From the NCBI GenBank assembly GCA_002419365.1, contig DIGA01000117.1, forward strand, positions 12,261-76,260: a stretch of 64,000 nt of DNA. The letters run 5' to 3'. The position numbers and the translations under genes are program-made. This document shows, one piece after another, positions 11,484 through 43,507 of the stretch. The stretch comes from Mageeibacillus sp. UBA5734 (lineage in GTDB: Bacteria; Bacillota; Clostridia; Saccharofermentanales; UBA5734). Under the pieces are notes generated by a model, which made no database searches, was not told where the DNA came from, and saw only the letters and a program-made list of their open reading frames with translations. Every line of letters begins with the position of its first letter. Position 1 is the first letter of the stretch.

Positions 11484-12032
11484 TCAGGCGAGCAAATACC
11501 GCTGCAAGGCCCGGCGTTTAGCCTGGGCTCCGGGCAACAGTTGTTCCAGCTGGCGATGAAAACGCGGGCTGTGGTCAAAATGGATCAGATGGCACAACTC
11601 ATGGACGACGATGTATTCGAGCAGATCATCAGGCAAGAGTCCTGCACAAAGATTGATGGATATGACACCGCTTTTGCTGCAACTCCCCCAGCGTCTTTTC
11701 TGGCGCCGGATGATCAGTTGTGCGGGTGCCAGACGGGGAAAGCGCTGGATGACATCCATGGCCTTCTGTCTGGTCTGGTGGCGCAAGGCAGCGATCTGGT
11801 CTGCACCTAGAGGAATCTGGACTGGAATCAGGCGGCTGTTTTCCGTCATTTTGCGCTTGATCCAGGCTTCCTTTTCCTGGATGAAACGCTGGATGTCAGC
11901 CAGCGGCATTTTCAGGCCACAGCGCACTTCCAGCTGGTTATCAGGGTGCAGCACCAGGGCCATGGTCTTGCGCCGGCTGCGGATGACCGTATAGGGTATG
12001 GCGATCTCAGGCAAAAGGTCAGGCTTGGCCAT
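11484..12032 (-). CDS. M48/SprT-like (YgjP/DUF45) zinc metallopeptidase family
   Basis: SRRKTMAL, RWGSCS and YIVVHELCHLIHFDHSPRF motifs. Start moved to ATG 12032. Confidence 0.85.
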   Translation of the reverse strand: MAKPDLLPEIAIPYTVIRSRRKTMALVLHPDNQLEVRCGLKMPLADIQRFIQEKEAWIKRKMTENSRLIPVQIPLGADQIAALRHQTRQKAMDVIQRFPRLAPAQLIIRRQKRRWGSCSKSGVISINLCAGLLPDDLLEYIVVHELCHLIHFDHSPRFHRQLEQLLPGAQAKRRALQRYLLA

Positions 12033-12876
12033 AACCTTGGTCGAGGCATCTCTGGGCTCGTTCGGCAGCTTTGCCCCCCAGCTTGATTTGTTCAGCCAGG
12101 AAATCCGGATGTTCGGACAAAAACCGGACCATGTACTGGTGCGGGTCCTGAATGAAACGAATGACCTGATCCGTCTGTTCCTGTGACAACAGTCCAACCG
12201 AGGTGGCCTGTTCAAACAAATCCAGATCGATTTTTGCCAGGGCGGTCAACTCAACGCCTGCCTGTTGGAGAATTTCCCGGCCCCCCTGGTCACGGTCGAC
12301 CACGACCGCTGTGTCCGAGATGGATCCACCCAGACGGGCGATGGCAGGCAGCCAGGCTCTCGTATAGCTGGATGCCTCGGTCACCAGGTCAGCAACATGC
12401 AGGAATGTCTGTCCCTTCAGGTCATTGTCAGACAATTCGCGCACGGCCTGGAAATTCTGGTCGCTCCAGTAAGCCCTGCCATCCTTGAGAATGGCGACAT
12501 GAGGTTTGCCAGTCCGTGCGGCCACCGGAATGGAAAAGAAGTAATCCCGCCTTTCACCACCGGATACAACATCAAAATCGAGGGTGGAAACGGCATCGAC
12601 CATCTGGTCGATGACTGCTTTGAAAACAGGCTGCTGCTGGTAATGCTCCAGAATCACTGCGGCGAGCATGCCCGGTAATTCAAGAGGTGTCTGAACAGCC
12701 TGCTCGATCAGGGTCAGGAGCTGGTTGGCCTGGGCTTCACTGCCATACAGGAAATGGGTGTTGATGTAATAGGGCCCAAGGGTGCCGGACGTATACCAGA
12801 ATGGCTGGTCAGCCGGACTGACCCGGACGGCCATGGTATCGAACAATGCTTTGATGATCGATTGATCTTGTTCCAC
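12019..12876 (-). CDS. pyrE: Orotate phosphoribosyltransferase (long, atypical clostridial type)
   Basis: Last gene of the pyr operon; PFWYTSG..GPYYIN and VVVDRDQGG; the PRPP loop reads VADLVTEASS. Confidence 0.75.
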   Translation of the reverse strand: MEQDQSIIKALFDTMAVRVSPADQPFWYTSGTLGPYYINTHFLYGSEAQANQLLTLIEQAVQTPLELPGMLAAVILEHYQQQPVFKAVIDQMVDAVSTLDFDVVSGGERRDYFFSIPVAARTGKPHVAILKDGRAYWSDQNFQAVRELSDNDLKGQTFLHVADLVTEASSYTRAWLPAIARLGGSISDTAVVVDRDQGGREILQQAGVELTALAKIDLDLFEQATSVGLLSQEQTDQVIRFIQDPHQYMVRFLSEHPDFLAEQIKLGGKAAERAQRCLDQGYGQA

Positions 12877-17600: not shown

Positions 17601-17906
17601 CAATTCCATCGCAAAATTCAAACCGGTCTGGCCGCCGAGGGTGGCCAGCAAGCCGTCAACCTTCTCATCCAGCATGATCCTCTGGATGACATCGATTTGC
17701 AGCGGCTCCAGATAGACTTTGTCAGCCATATTGGTGTCGGTCATGATCGTCGCAGGGTTGCTGTTGACCAGGACGACTTCGTACCCTTCAGCTTTCAAGG
17801 CGCGGCAGGCTTGGGTCCCTGCATAATCAAACTCGGCAGCCTGGCCGATGACAATCGGTCCAGAGCCGATGACCATGATTTTATGAATGTCCGTGCGTTT
17901 GGGCAT
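14625..17906 (-). CDS. carB: Carbamoyl-phosphate synthase large subunit
   Basis: MPKRTDIHKIMVIGSGPIVIGQAAEFDYAG, two ATP-grasp halves and a C-terminal MGS domain. Confidence 0.98.
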   Translation of the reverse strand: MPKRTDIHKIMVIGSGPIVIGQAAEFDYAGTQACRALKAEGYEVVLVNSNPATIMTDTNMADKVYLEPLQIDVIQRIMLDEKVDGLLATLGGQTGLNFAMELSESGFLDQHNIAMLGTPAAGIRMGEDREEFRAAMLRINEPCIPSGTANNLEECLRLAEEIGYPVIVRPAFTLGGTGGGIAADEKALRQFAVSGLNASRVHQVLIERSIAGWKEIEFEAVRDAKGNAITICSMENFDPVGVHTGDSIVVAPAQTLTDLEYQKLRTAALKIVTELGIVGGCNVQFAQHPTQVDYAVIEVNPRLSRSSALASKATGYPIAKVASRIAVGYALDEIPNEVTGTTKASFEPAVDYIVTKIPKWPFDKFIKARRTLGTQMKATGEVMAIANTFEASLMKAIRSLELGLYGLRLPLMMELSDHDLWPRMIQADDMRLFAVAEGIRRGFSLDEIYDRTWIDKFFLKKLSSLVAVETAINGMKTIDDALLTRAVRMAFTDSWIAKLSGIPADRIRQRRKDLGLVHTYKMVDTCAGEYDAVTPYFYSTFDMKNEAIRTERKKVLVLGSGPIRIGQGIEFDYCSVHSVWALRELGYEAIIANNNPETVSTDFDTSDRLYFEPLTPDDVRAIIENEKPDGAICQFGGQTAIKLIKAVTEMGLPIFGTSADGVDAAEDRQRFDAILEECEIKRPSGTTVRTADEALAAAASLGYPVLVRPSYVLGGQGMAIVHNDTDMIEYMRIINLVEQENPILVDKYLMGVELEVDAVSDGEDILIPGIMEHLERAGVHSGDSISIFPAYISERIRDILVDHTRKLARAIKVIGLINIQFILYNDEVYVIEVNPRSSRTVPYISKVTGIPIVDLATRVMMGARLKDFEYGTGLFARYPAVYAIKAPVFSFEKLHDVDTSLGPEMKSTGEVLGLSTTYSEAMYKAILASNFKFPPKGAGILMTVRDSDKPDLVPLASRLNNLGYELYGTGGTANYLNKYGIPCSISRRALEGHPSTVDMIDQGTVKLLINTENSTSNDDREGFRLRRHAIEHGIATITSLDTLVAVVECLEREMTPADLKPYEIQVFADIVAATRENILPLNEMPMQNDMLKK

Positions 17907-17936
17907 GTTGATCTCCTTTCAGGAAAAGAGCAAGAA

Positions 17937-17974
17937 TCTGTATAATTATACGTTTCTGTTTATAATTATTCAAT
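17937..17974 (-). promoter_or_regulatory. Internal sigmaA promoter of carB overlapped by tandem ARG-box-like palindromes
   Basis: Minus strand TTGAAT (17973-17968), 17 bp, TATAAT (17950-17945). Two TGnATWWWWATnCA-like cores at 17939-17952 and 17959-17972, each with one mismatch, 20 bp apart. Confidence 0.7.
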
Positions 17975-18916
17975 CGCCCGGCCAGCTCTTTTTAAGGCAC
18001 TGCGCAAATCGTCACGCATGGCGAGCGCCTCCTTTCGCGTGGCTGAGGCAAACGCCTCTGCTGAAAGTCCATACTTTTTATGGGCCAGCATCAAGCTGCG
18101 CGAGGCGTTGACAATGGCACCCTGGCCATCTGGACCAAAGCTGGCGACCGCGTCTTCTGCTGTCGCGCCCTGGGCACCGTAGCCAGGTACCAGGATCAGG
18201 CTGTGGGGCATGATCTGGCGCAGTTTTTCTGCCTGGCGCGGCCAGGTGGCGCCGACAACAGCACCGACCGACGAATAGCCGGACTGGCCAATCAGGTCCT
18301 GGCCCCACTCAGCGACCTTTCCAGCCATTGCTTCATAGACAGTCCGGCCATCATCCAGGACCAGATCCTGGAGATCACCAGCAGAAGGGTTTGAAGTCCG
18401 GACCAGGATATAGACGCCCTGGCCGCCCTTCTGGCATTGGTCGAGGAAGGGCTTGATGCCATCGATCCCGAGATATCCATTCAAGGTGATGCAATCTGCT
18501 CCGATGAAAGACTGGCTGATGGATTCTCCGAGGCTGGTCTGGCCCAGAATGGCCCGGGAGTATGCCTCGGCGGTGCTGCCGATGTCATTGCGTTTGGCAT
18601 CGGCGATAACCAGCAGGCCTTTCGACTGGGCGTAGGTGATGGTTCTCTGCAGAGCTGCAAGCCCTGGCACGCCATACTGTTCGTAATAGGCAAATTGAGG
18701 TTTGACAGCAGGGATCAGATCAGACACGGCATCGATCAGCTGCTGGTTGAACCAGAACAAGGCCAGTCCTGCAGCTTCAGCTGGGTCAGTCGATTCCAAC
18801 GCAGCCTGGTGACGAATGGTCGCCGGGACATAGTCGAGCATCGGGTCGAGACCCATGACGGTCGGATTGCCCGTTTCTTTGATTTTCCGAGTCAGCCGAT
18901 CGGCAAAATTCACCAT
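17966..18916 (-). CDS. pyrF: Orotidine-5'-phosphate decarboxylase
   Basis: MGLDP, VKPQFAYYE, DAKRNDIGST, LVRTSNP, GAVVGAT, LVPGYGAQG and NASRS motifs. Confidence 0.96.
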   Translation of the reverse strand: MVNFADRLTRKIKETGNPTVMGLDPMLDYVPATIRHQAALESTDPAEAAGLALFWFNQQLIDAVSDLIPAVKPQFAYYEQYGVPGLAALQRTITYAQSKGLLVIADAKRNDIGSTAEAYSRAILGQTSLGESISQSFIGADCITLNGYLGIDGIKPFLDQCQKGGQGVYILVRTSNPSAGDLQDLVLDDGRTVYEAMAGKVAEWGQDLIGQSGYSSVGAVVGATWPRQAEKLRQIMPHSLILVPGYGAQGATAEDAVASFGPDGQGAIVNASRSLMLAHKKYGLSAEAFASATRKEALAMRDDLRSALKRAGRAIE

Positions 18917-21105: not shown

Positions 21106-21861
<756 letters not shown>

Positions 21862-21885
21862 TCACAGAAAGCAAGCCCCGGTCGA

Positions 21886-21914
21886 TTGACAGGATCCGGG
21901 AAGCTTGCTAAGAT
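21886..21914 (+). promoter_or_regulatory. sigmaA promoter of tRNA-Leu(CAA)
   Basis: TTGACA, 17-bp spacer, TGc-TAAGAT. Confidence 0.65.
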
Positions 21915-29103: not shown

Positions 29104-29651
29104 GCATGATCTCCTTGTGCTTCTTGGGGGGATGGTCCGCGGTTCAGGCCCAGTTTCTGCAAGACTGCCCGTTGCCGGCGCAGCATGGCCTTTTCCCGCT
29201 CCAACGTATCGTGGTCATAACCGAGCAGGTGGAGAAAACCATGGGCAGCCAGGAAGGCGATTTCACGCTCAAACCGGTGCCCCAGCTCCCGTGCCTGCTG
29301 TTCGGCTTTTTCCAGGCAAATCAGGATGTCACCGAGAAAGACAGTCGGCTGCCCCGAAGAATAGTCCAGGTCAGCTGCCTGCAATGGTACGGTCAACCTG
29401 CCGTCGATCAGGTCTTGCATGGGGAATGACAAGACATCTGTCACTTTGTCGATGCCACGGGTTGCTGCATTGATCCGTCGGATCTCCATCCGGCTGACAA
29501 AGGTGACTGTGAGGGCACAGGTGTATCCCTTGCGTGCCATTCGGCAGCAGAAGGATTCCCTGGTTTCAAGTTCGCCCAGGACTGCATCCGCCAGGTCCTT
29601 GGCTGGACCGGTTGCATATTTGCGTTGCTTATTGACGTATTGGATTTGCAT
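29100..29651 (-). CDS. ybeY: rRNA maturation endoribonuclease YbeY
   Basis: DKVTDVLSFP, LGDILIC and HGFLHLLGYDH motifs. Start at 29651 is inferred. Confidence 0.92.
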   Translation of the reverse strand: MQIQYVNKQRKYATGPAKDLADAVLGELETRESFCCRMARKGYTCALTVTFVSRMEIRRINAATRGIDKVTDVLSFPMQDLIDGRLTVPLQAADLDYSSGQPTVFLGDILICLEKAEQQARELGHRFEREIAFLAAHGFLHLLGYDHDTLEREKAMLRRQRAVLQKLGLNRGPSPQEAQGDHA

Positions 29652-31737
29652 CGGGGTATTTGACCCTTTCGTGGAAATGACCGGCATAGACTTGCAGGAA
29701 CGAAGCGATGATGGTTTCAATGTCTTTGAAAGACAGGCCGGAATGGACCAGCTGGTCCTGTTCATTCTTGATCTTGATGATCCGGCGGATCAGGCTCTCC
29801 GCTGCCTCGAGCTGATGCGTGCTGGTTGATTTCATGGCAGCCTCGACCGAGTCTGACAGCATGACGATGGCGGATTCCCGGCTGGACGGGACAGGACAAC
29901 GGTAGCGGAACACACTGGGATCTGGTTCCTGCATCTCATTTTCCTCGGCCAGCCGCTTGGCCTTCTGGTAGAAAAAGGCCTGCATGGTAGAACCGTGGTG
30001 CTCCTGGATAATATTGATCAGAGGCGATGGCAAGCGGTAGCGGCGGGCAACCCTCACCCCGGCATCTGGATGCGCCAGGATGATCCGGGCGCTTTCGGCT
30101 GGATCGAGACTGTCATGGGGATTTTCCCCAGACTGGTTTTCGGTGAACATCAGAGGCGCTTCCAGCTTGCCGATGTCATGGTAATACGCACCGACACGGG
30201 CCAGAAGCGGATTTGCCCCGACTGCCTCGGCAGCCGCGTCCGCCAGGTTGGCAACCATCATGCTGTGCTGGGACGTGCCTGGTGCTTCGATGAACAGCCG
30301 CCGCAGCAGCGGATTGCCTGGCTGGGACAGCTCGATCAGGCGCAATGGTGAAACGGAATTGAAGATCATTTCAAACAAGGGCATGATGCCGATCGCGGCA
30401 ATCACGGATATGGTCCCGCTGAGCGCGGTCACCGCGCAGTTGAGACTGATGGTCGGCCATTCCTCTTTGAGGAGGATGCCAAATGCCAGTGTTGTGATGA
30501 AATTCGTGCTGGCTGTGGCGATGATGATGTAGGCATAGTTGTCCCGGCGAGAAATACCCTTGGTGAACAAGGCTGCAACACTGCTGCCACTCAAGGCAAC
30601 TACGGCAAACAGCGGGTCGAATCCAGCCATGGGCAGGATGGCGATGGTCAGGATCAGTGCCATCAGGCTGGAGGTGCGGAAACCATAATAGGCCGCCAGG
30701 AGCACTGCCGTAAAATAGACCGGAGCCGCCAGGGGCTCGATCCTGGCTAATGCGGCAGAAGCAACCAGCGGAATCAGGATGGCAACAATCAGGGCAATCC
30801 GGTTATTGCGCAGGTGGATGGATTCGTTTTCATATTTTTTCAGATAAAACCAGGCGATGAAGGCCAGAGGCAGGAGCATCAGTAGAATGCCCAGCAAGTA
30901 GCGGAAATCAAAGCCTTCTTTCTCGATCAGGTCGAGCTCTTCCAGCAAGTCATAGGTTTCGCTGGTGATGACGTCGCCCTGGGAGATGATCCTCGCACCA
31001 CGGTTGATCAGGACAGGATTGTTCTGGACCTTGTCATAGGCTGCCTGGCGGGCATTTTCCGTGGCAATGGAATCATAGGCGATGTTGGGCACCAGGATCA
31101 GGCCCAGGACATTGCCAATCAAGGACACATCTTCGCGGTTGAAATTGGTCGTATCGCTGAGTGATTCCATCCGGTTGCTCAAGGCTGAATTCAACGAATA
31201 CGAATCGACCGGTTCACTCATGATCAGGGTGGCGATGGAACGGGCATGGCCGCGGACGCTTCTGAATCGTTCCGGATCCATTCGCAGGAACGCCTCGAGA
31301 TCTTCTGAAGAGACAACCAGATCCATTTCGCGGTCAAATTCCCGGACGAGTTCGGTCACCGTGTTACGGATGGTTGCATCGGATACGGCTGGCTGGTCTG
31401 GATCCGCATCACTGCCCGGTTCGGGAAAAATCTCCGTCCGCCGGGCTGCCAGCTGGTCGAAAAAAAGGTCGAAACGCCCCATGACCTCAGCCACAATCGC
31501 TTCGGACCGGACCACGACAATTTCCACATCTGCTGCAGCCTTGTTGGCTCGCTGGTCTGTGGCTGACTTGTCGCGGATGCTGCGAGATGCGGTGATGTCG
31601 TAAGGGCTGGTGTCACCAACCGTGAGAGGGTATTTCTCCGGAATCGATCCGTAATAGATCGCGGCCACTGCTATGATCAAAAGGACCGGCACCAGAAGAT
31701 ACGTCAGTAATGTCTGGATCTTCGCTGGAAGCTTCAT
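29629..31737 (-). CDS. pgpH: 7TM-HD (HDIG) phosphohydrolase, PgpH-like c-di-AMP phosphodiesterase
   Basis: Extracellular domain, about seven TM helices, APGTSQHS..VANL, YYHDIGK and DSVEAA; phoH-pgpH-ybeY synteny. Confidence 0.85.
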   Translation of the reverse strand: MKLPAKIQTLLTYLLVPVLLIIAVAAIYYGSIPEKYPLTVGDTSPYDITASRSIRDKSATDQRANKAAADVEIVVVRSEAIVAEVMGRFDLFFDQLAARRTEIFPEPGSDADPDQPAVSDATIRNTVTELVREFDREMDLVVSSEDLEAFLRMDPERFRSVRGHARSIATLIMSEPVDSYSLNSALSNRMESLSDTTNFNREDVSLIGNVLGLILVPNIAYDSIATENARQAAYDKVQNNPVLINRGARIISQGDVITSETYDLLEELDLIEKEGFDFRYLLGILLMLLPLAFIAWFYLKKYENESIHLRNNRIALIVAILIPLVASAALARIEPLAAPVYFTAVLLAAYYGFRTSSLMALILTIAILPMAGFDPLFAVVALSGSSVAALFTKGISRRDNYAYIIIATASTNFITTLAFGILLKEEWPTISLNCAVTALSGTISVIAAIGIMPLFEMIFNSVSPLRLIELSQPGNPLLRRLFIEAPGTSQHSMMVANLADAAAEAVGANPLLARVGAYYHDIGKLEAPLMFTENQSGENPHDSLDPAESARIILAHPDAGVRVARRYRLPSPLINIIQEHHGSTMQAFFYQKAKRLAEENEMQEPDPSVFRYRCPVPSSRESAIVMLSDSVEAAMKSTSTHQLEAAESLIRRIIKIKNEQDQLVHSGLSFKDIETIIASFLQVYAGHFHERVKYPDANPIRQ

Positions 31738-43015: not shown

Positions 43016-43507
43016 CTAGCCTTCAGACGGCTGGGTGGTTCCGAAACCAGGTGCGATCAGCCGGGATAGGACCTCTGCCATCTGCTGGGCCTGTTCGGAT
43101 GACCGGGTTGCGATAAAAACAGTATCATCACCAGCCAGAGTTCCGACCAGGTCAGACAGTCGCATGGAATCCAGTGCTGAAGCACAGGCCTGGGCCATGC
43201 CGGGCATGGTCTTGATCACAATCAGGTTCATCGCCAGATCCACCGAAAGGACTGATTCTGCATAGATTTTCATCAAGCGCCCGGAGATCGATTCGCCTGT
43301 GCGCTGCATGGAGACGTACTTCTGGGTCCCGGTCCCGGTCATGACCTTGACGATCCCCAGCTCTTTGATGTCGCGCGATACGGTAGCCTGGGTGACATCC
43401 ATGCCGCTCGAGCGCATGGCCAGGACCAGCTCATCCTGCGTAGAGAGATCCTTGTCCCGGATCAGCTGCAAGAGCCGGGCCTGTCGTTCAATTTTATCTG
43501 TCCTCAT
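43016..43507 (-). CDS. argR: Arginine repressor
   Basis: TQDELV, TQATVSRDIKEL and GTLAGDDT motifs. Confidence 0.96.
   Translation of the reverse strand: MRTDKIERQARLLQLIRDKDLSTQDELVLAMRSSGMDVTQATVSRDIKELGIVKVMTGTGTQKYVSMQRTGESISGRLMKIYAESVLSVDLAMNLIVIKTMPGMAQACASALDSMRLSDLVGTLAGDDTVFIATRSSEQAQQMAEVLSRLIAPGFGTTQPSEG

Follow-up and report, generated by a model that had tools for sequence, protein, structure and literature searches.

An ArgR-repressed promoter predicted inside a clostridial pyr operon would bring carB under both pyrimidine and arginine control

Carbamoyl phosphate is common to arginine and pyrimidine synthesis, and the dual control of one enzyme is a classic question; the Firmicutes are the textbook case of two specialised CPS enzymes. 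In E. coli, carAB has a pyrimidine-controlled promoter, P1, and a second promoter, P2, that is covered by two ARG boxes and at which ArgR and RNA polymerase are mutually exclusive (PMC6245113). The pyr cluster of Streptomyces coelicolor, pyrR-pyrB-pyrC-SCO1485-pyrAa-pyrA-pyrD-pyrF, is also bound by ArgR, at boxes upstream of pyrR, pyrB and pyrA, and mutation of argR derepresses its pyr genes (PMC3293853, PMC5839063). Arginine-specific CPS genes are found in Bacillus subtilis, Geobacillus stearothermophilus and Lactobacillus plantarum (PMC6245113, PMC3616900, PMC5291005), and carAB of the Lactobacillaceae is a member of a predicted ArgR regulon (PMC3616900). The ARG consensus is given in the literature as TNTGAATWWWWATTCANW or AWTGCATRWWYATGCAWT (PMC5291005). 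A 2-bp separation of the boxes is usual for Bacillus-type ArgR operators (PMC5839063), and a separation of 3 bp is found in E. coli (PMC6245113).

The window considered here, by which we mean the whole 64,000-nucleotide stretch that was analysed, carries a pyr operon in which carB lies directly after pyrF. It is likely, on the evidence of the sequence and of its relatives, that the short spacer between these two genes holds an internal promoter repressed by ArgR, and that carB, pyrK and pyrD are thereby subject to control by pyrimidines and by arginine. The genes and the leader element that bear on this proposal are as follows.

21700-21835, minus strand: PyrR binding loop and intrinsic terminator (RF00515), in the operon leader 5' of pyrR
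21654-21106, minus strand: pyrR (NF003549, 8.2e-77)
21101-20175, minus strand: pyrB, 4 nt after pyrR
20175-18910, minus strand: pyrC, in the upstream half of the operon
18916-17966, minus strand: pyrF, type-2 (TIGR02127, 8.9e-82)
17906-14625, minus strand: carB (NF003671, 1479 bits)
14612-13824, minus strand: pyrK, beginning 12 nt after carB
13830-12916, minus strand: pyrD, after pyrK
12019-12876, minus strand: 285-aa phosphoribosyltransferase-like gene, after pyrD
43016-43507, minus strand: argR/ahrC, the presumed trans-acting repressor (PF01316, 2.5e-21; PF02863, 2.6e-27)

An earlier, sequence-only reading of this DNA had named pyrF and carB, and had placed argR at 43016-43507; the profile matches uphold the two gene names, and both ArgR Pfam domains are found where the repressor was placed. 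The same reading had called the gene after pyrD pyrE. That name has one NCBIfam match behind it, to the orotate phosphoribosyltransferase model NF001729 (3.8e-13), but the match scores 49 bits against a cut-off of 245, and the gene has no Pfam match. A gene of 285-287 aa, likewise lacking a Pfam match, follows pyrD in all close relatives.

PyrR attenuation of the leader, which had been assumed, now finds its basis in the pyrR gene and in an RF00515 match with a clear terminator. The match extends over the full model length at E = 0.0003 on a 351-nt search, with a score of 40 bits that is below the gathering score of 54. The binding loop reads CCUUUAACGCAGUCCUGUGAGACUUCAAAGG, and seven U in a row (AUUUUUUU) come after the terminator stem, GCAGCCACCUGUCUUGCAGCGACAGAUGGCU. 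The element carries an insertion of 41 nt where RF00515 expects 20 nt. Terminator and Rfam scans revealed no further attenuator or terminator within the operon. Since the leader attenuator is the only one in the operon, pyrimidine excess should switch off everything downstream, carB included. An RNA-level role for the pyrF–carB spacer itself was considered and rejected: neither a terminator-like structure nor an Rfam element was found there, and the palindrome of the second box described below is too short and AU-rich for a meaningful hairpin.

The minus strand of the spacer, from the end of pyrF to the start of carB, reads GCG ATT GAA TAA TTATAAACAGAAACGTATAATTATACAGATTCTTGCTCTTTTCCTGAAAGGAGATCAAC ATG. 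It is 58 bp long and AT-rich (30% G+C), and its elements are listed here in the order of transcription.

17974-17957, minus strand: ARG box 1, ATTGAATAATTATAAACA, which contains the -35 hexamer and overlaps the pyrF stop
17973-17968, minus strand: -35 hexamer TTGAAT
17956-17955, minus strand: linker GA, 2 bp between the boxes (box period 20 bp)
17954-17937, minus strand: ARG box 2, AACGTATAATTATACAGA, which contains the -10 hexamer and the likely start region
17950-17945, minus strand: -10 hexamer TATAAT, 17 nt after the -35
17907-17936, minus strand: predicted short carB 5' UTR, with the Shine-Dalgarno sequence GGAG at 17916-17913

The strings and coordinates first reported for the two hexamers, their 17-bp spacing, the two 18-bp palindromes and the 2-bp gap between them are exact. 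The predicted promoter, TTGAAT-17-TATAAT, has 10 of 12 consensus matches and belongs to the top three of the 16 candidates in a 12-kb scan; the two boxes cover it. The pyrF stop codon (TAA, 17968-17966, minus strand) begins with the last T of the promoter's -35, and 38 nt separate the -10 from the carB ATG (17906-17904). Transcription would begin at about 17938, within box 2. Both boxes fit the ARG consensus as 18-bp imperfect palindromes, each with one mismatch to the core TGNATWWWWATNCA. Within box 2, GTATAATTATAC forms a 12-bp palindrome without a mismatch; box 1 is degenerate in its right half (ATAAAC as compared with ATnCA), both in the window and in close relatives.

The geometry suggests how such a device might work. 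A sigma-A-type promoter would lie in the spacer with one ARG box over its -35 and the other over its -10 and start region. Because the two 18-mers are only 2 bp apart, the boxes lie on one face of the helix; the arginine-bound ArgR hexamer encoded at 43016-43507 could occupy both, keep RNA polymerase out and silence the promoter. At low arginine, the internal promoter would produce carB-pyrK-pyrD mRNA, even while PyrR with UMP or UTP terminates transcription in the leader, some 3.8-3.9 kb upstream and four genes away. When pyrimidines are scarce, read-through of the leader would supply carB at any arginine level. Control of carB by pyrimidines and arginine would thus be cumulative. The pyrK and pyrD genes are presumably co-transcribed with carB from the predicted promoter. 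We infer the binding of ArgR, the activity of the promoter, the direction of regulation and the contribution of CarB to arginine synthesis from the sequence.

The candidate repressor is well suited to these boxes. It has the same recognition helix, TQATVSRDIKEL, as B. subtilis AhrC, and AhrC (1f9n) is also its best solved relative (E = 1.2e-27). The arginine-binding motif GTxAGDDT is kept, as GTLAGDDT.

Related loci were gathered through PyrF homologues at graded distance, by profile scans of contigs and by protein homology search. Three arrangements follow pyrF in the fetched loci: carB directly, carA-carB, or pyrK-pyrD without a car gene. In all fetched loci whose CarB is 75-95% identical to that of the window, carB comes directly after pyrF. 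The comparison set comprises 15 lineages, the window included, with genomic GC of 33-59%. The sequence-only reading had proposed that conservation of both boxes upstream of carB orthologues be checked, and the boxes are indeed kept: tandem boxes with a period of 20 or 21 bp occupy the pyrF–carB spacer in 13 of the 15 lineages, a single box is present in one, and one has none. The single box, in L101, is a good one and lies over a -10. The lineage without boxes, L098 (7951-7965 of L098; a 2.37-Mb record; CarB 83% identical), has just 13 bp between pyrF and carB, which indicates that the device is dispensable in some lineages. L098 also provides a natural operator-less comparison genome for the question of a compensating second CPS. 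Outside this set, boxes were found in none of L018, L108, L136 and L168, where carB follows pyrF and CarB is at most 64% identical, and no box with two or fewer mismatches lies close 5' of carA in 18 loci with the order pyrF-carA-carB.

It is conceivable, though unlikely, that ArgR binds here chiefly to block or modulate transcription arriving from the leader, so that arginine would lower carB-pyrK-pyrD relative to pyrR-pyrB-pyrC-pyrF. With no terminator between pyrF and carB, read-through transcripts must cross the operator. In four public metatranscriptomes, in which the organism is rare, a few contigs of 150-270 nt were found, without a pile-up of ends. One contig of 151 nt covers 17829-17979 and so crosses the pyrF–carB junction and extends past the -35; if it derives from RNA, it reports read-through only and has no bearing on an internal start. 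In L007 and L008, moreover, a simple scan finds no good pair of -35 and -10 hexamers beside the boxes. Against such a role, promoter matches of 9-11 out of 12 overlap the boxes in the window and in L087, L089, L090, L091 and L022. A roadblock would also starve the cell of pyrK and pyrD at high arginine, which is hard to square with its need for pyrimidines, and in E. coli transcription from P1 seems to destabilise the complex of ArgR with the P2 operator (PMC6245113). Repression of an internal promoter is the reading that we prefer.

The pattern of conservation within the spacer bears on whether the operator or the promoter is under constraint. When seven lineages are aligned, TG-ATAA--A of box 1 and G-ATA--TAT-CA of box 2 stay invariant. 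They correspond to the positions that the ARG core specifies, and the N positions of the core vary among A, C and T. The left half of box 1, TGnATAA, is invariant across the seven. Box 2 and the sequence flanking it, nGTATAATTATACAGA, are the same in relatives whose PyrF is 74-87% identical, and the 5' UTR that follows diverges among close relatives, except for CTGAAAGGAG. The sequence of the window also occurs in a hydrocarbon-degrading enrichment and in other anaerobic metagenomes; strains from three other metagenomes show one substitution only in the spacer, at 17955 in the 2-bp linker. The more distant members of the set carry boxes such as TGCATAAATATGCA, TGAATATATATGCA, TGCATATATATGCA, TGCATAAATATACA and TGCATATATATTCA. 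No -10 coincides with the boxes of L096, L097, L007, L008 and L022; those of L022 lie upstream of a separate promoter, TTCACA-17-TATAAT, and over its -35. The invariance of the core columns, the variability of the N positions and the displacement of the distant boxes from any -10 together indicate that constraint follows the operator, not the hexamers alone.

Specificity was assessed by scanning for two boxes that match the core at a period of 20 or 21 bp. Within the 64-kb window, no tandem site but that of the pyrF–carB spacer (1 + 1 mismatches) has three or fewer mismatches in total, and the mean number expected from 100 Markov-1 simulations of the window is 0.01. When a 70-nt spacer segment was shuffled 200,000 times, a fraction of 1e-5 attained two or fewer mismatches. 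A PWM was made from the boxes of relatives alone, with the window and its nearest relative left out. The consensus of this matrix, AATGCATATATATGCATT, is the same as the one published for Gram-positive ARG boxes, AWTGCATRWWYATGCAWT (PMC5291005). The matrix gives its two highest scores anywhere in the window to box 1 (19.4 bits) and box 2 (18.5 bits), and the tandem score of the pair is 37.9 bits, compared with 10.9 for the runner-up. A lone ARG-like 18-mer, TTTTCATATTTTTTCAGA, scores 16.3 bits at 30827-30844; it falls within a long ORF of the minus strand (29629-31737), lacks a second box in tandem and probably arose by chance.

The related loci scanned for tandem boxes amount to about 1.8 Mb (~1.44 Mb plus 0.39 Mb). 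Matches with three or fewer mismatches occur in pyrF–carB spacers, at L011:3104 and upstream of argG in L009, and nowhere else. The match at L011:3104 is weak and belongs to a locus of 33% GC. In L009, a Clostridia relative, a tandem ARG operator, AATGAATATTTATGCATC and ATTTGTATAACTTTGCAC (2703-2740), stands immediately 5' of the gene for argininosuccinate synthase, argG (NF001770, 2.5e-179). It offers an independent ArgR reference site for this group.

These data also bear on a simpler account, in which the spacer holds an ordinary internal promoter, either constitutive or under some other control, whose likeness to ARG boxes is a by-product of AT-rich hexamers and which ArgR does not bind. 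The sequences TTGnAT and TATAAT are themselves similar to half-sites, and among the four closest relatives the conserved blocks are the -35 and the -10. Given this likeness of the hexamers to half-sites of ARG boxes, some of what is conserved in the closest relatives could be due to the promoter by itself. We nevertheless judge this account distinctly improbable. The conserved stretch TATAATTATACAGA reaches beyond the hexamers, and the distant relatives have boxes of the TGCATAxxxATGCA type, with a 20-bp period, that are off any -10. Nor does a by-product of hexamers explain the recurrence of the tandem motif 5' of argG in L009, or a tandem match with a p of about 1e-5 in the spacer's own composition.

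That ArgR, rather than some other regulator, recognises the boxes is suggested by their symmetry and by the company they keep. Several families use AT-rich palindromes, and a second ArgR/AhrC paralogue in another role, or a protein of the Fur/PerR kind, might in principle respond here to a signal other than arginine. This seems very improbable. The symmetry within each 18-mer is 7-0-7 and the tandem 20-bp phase is like that of ARG operators; the motif also occurs at argG of L009, and the recognition helix of the window's ArgR is the same as that of AhrC. That the consensus derived from relatives coincides with the published ARG consensus (PMC5291005) argues in the same direction. The more specific possibility of Fur/PerR/Zur-type boxes was rejected on the symmetry and on the co-occurrence with argG. 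Fur/PerR boxes have 7-1-7 symmetry.

Chance resemblance without function, for which the mere 30% G+C of the spacer might speak, is effectively refuted by the statistics and by conservation in 13 of 15 lineages across genomic GC of 33-59%, and can be set aside as negligible. Repression by ArgR of a promoter in front of carB thus remains the preferred interpretation of the spacer.

A further feature of the operon is that carB stands in it without carA. This is so in 15 related lineages (the window; L007, L008, L011, L022, L087-L091 and L096-L101). A tblastn search with 18 CarA sequences from related loci matched neither the window nor any of the clade's loci, and carA is also absent from a further 10 kb of the 100-kb contig, beyond the end of the window, and from within 6-10 kb of the operon in relatives. 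No second carB was seen in the window and the related loci examined, and no arginine biosynthesis genes are present in the window or in a further 10-36 kb of its contig. Relatives whose CarB is at most 65% identical have carA-carB after pyrF, or an operon without car genes. ARG boxes are missing from the loci that retain carA in the position between these two genes, a hint that the operator may have been acquired together with the loss of carA from the operon.

In several Ruminococcus-type loci (L042, L043, L047, L048, L055, L059), where carA-carB follow pyrF, a motif CACAATGGCGTG(G/A)... recurs about 60-110 nt 5' of carA. It could be a leader element in the RNA, of the PyrR type or of another kind.

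The predicted ArgR site attached to carB suggests that the CarB of this pyr operon serves arginine synthesis, and a second CPS elsewhere in the genome is possible. A more far-reaching idea, which we regard as doubtful, is that CPS is genetically split in this clade: an orphan carB would be governed by PyrR and by the ArgR promoter, and carA would lie elsewhere, perhaps controlled by arginine alone, or would be missing. If this were so, the large subunit, not the operon for the holoenzyme, would integrate the pyrimidine and arginine signals, and CarB might under some conditions use ammonia or a shared or alternative amidotransferase. In any case the locus sharpens the question of where carA is, and supplies a clean candidate operator for the ArgR of uncultured organisms.

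How far this arrangement departs from known systems has to be judged with care. Dual Pyr/Arg control, as first proposed for this locus, gains support from the tandem operator over a predicted promoter, its conservation, the motif at argG, the AhrC-like ArgR and the attenuator. The accompanying claim of novelty does not fare as well: to call the arrangement different was an overstatement, for its logic equals that of P1 and P2 of E. coli carAB, and a cluster of PyrR type bound by ArgR has been published for S. coelicolor. A limited literature search found no description of such an arrangement in Clostridia. It is possible that uncultured anaerobic Clostridia of one clade, found in hydrocarbon, digester and sediment communities, use a single carB under both PyrR attenuation and ArgR repression.

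With the arginine-specific CPS genes of Gram-positive bacteria the locus shares an AhrC/ArgR-type repressor, an ARG operator of the Gram-positive kind and a CPS target. In B. subtilis, G. stearothermophilus and L. plantarum, however, there are two CPS enzymes under separate control, whereas here the predicted ArgR site lies on carB inside a pyr operon controlled by PyrR. The likeness to S. coelicolor consists in a pyrR-containing cluster with CPS gene(s), there pyrA and pyrAa, and with ARG boxes. The boxes of S. coelicolor are mostly single and weak (Ri 1.8-7.7 bits, PMC3293853) and occur in several places, and the whole pathway responds. In contrast, the present operon has one strong tandem operator, before carB only, and does not contain carA.

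There is a close parallel with carAB of E. coli and Salmonella, in which a CPS gene has an upstream pyrimidine-sensitive promoter and a downstream promoter beneath two 18-bp ARG boxes; the resulting cumulative repression is established in E. coli (PMC6245113) and predicted here. The parts are nonetheless different. The tandem promoters of E. coli are adjacent and lie upstream of carA, whereas in the present operon about 3.9 kb, holding pyrR, pyrB, pyrC and pyrF, separate the two control points, the upstream promoter and attenuator lying near 21700-21900. Pyrimidines would act by PyrR attenuation here, and act through UTP-sensitive initiation with PepA, RutR, PurR and IHF in E. coli. The boxes here are separated by 2 bp and cover the -35 and the -10, compared with a separation of 3 bp in E. 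coli. Finally, the regulated unit of E. coli begins with carA, and that of the present operon would begin with carB, without carA, and include pyrK and pyrD. If the proposal is correct, this locus is a Gram-positive counterpart of the P1/P2 design of E. coli, built from different parts.
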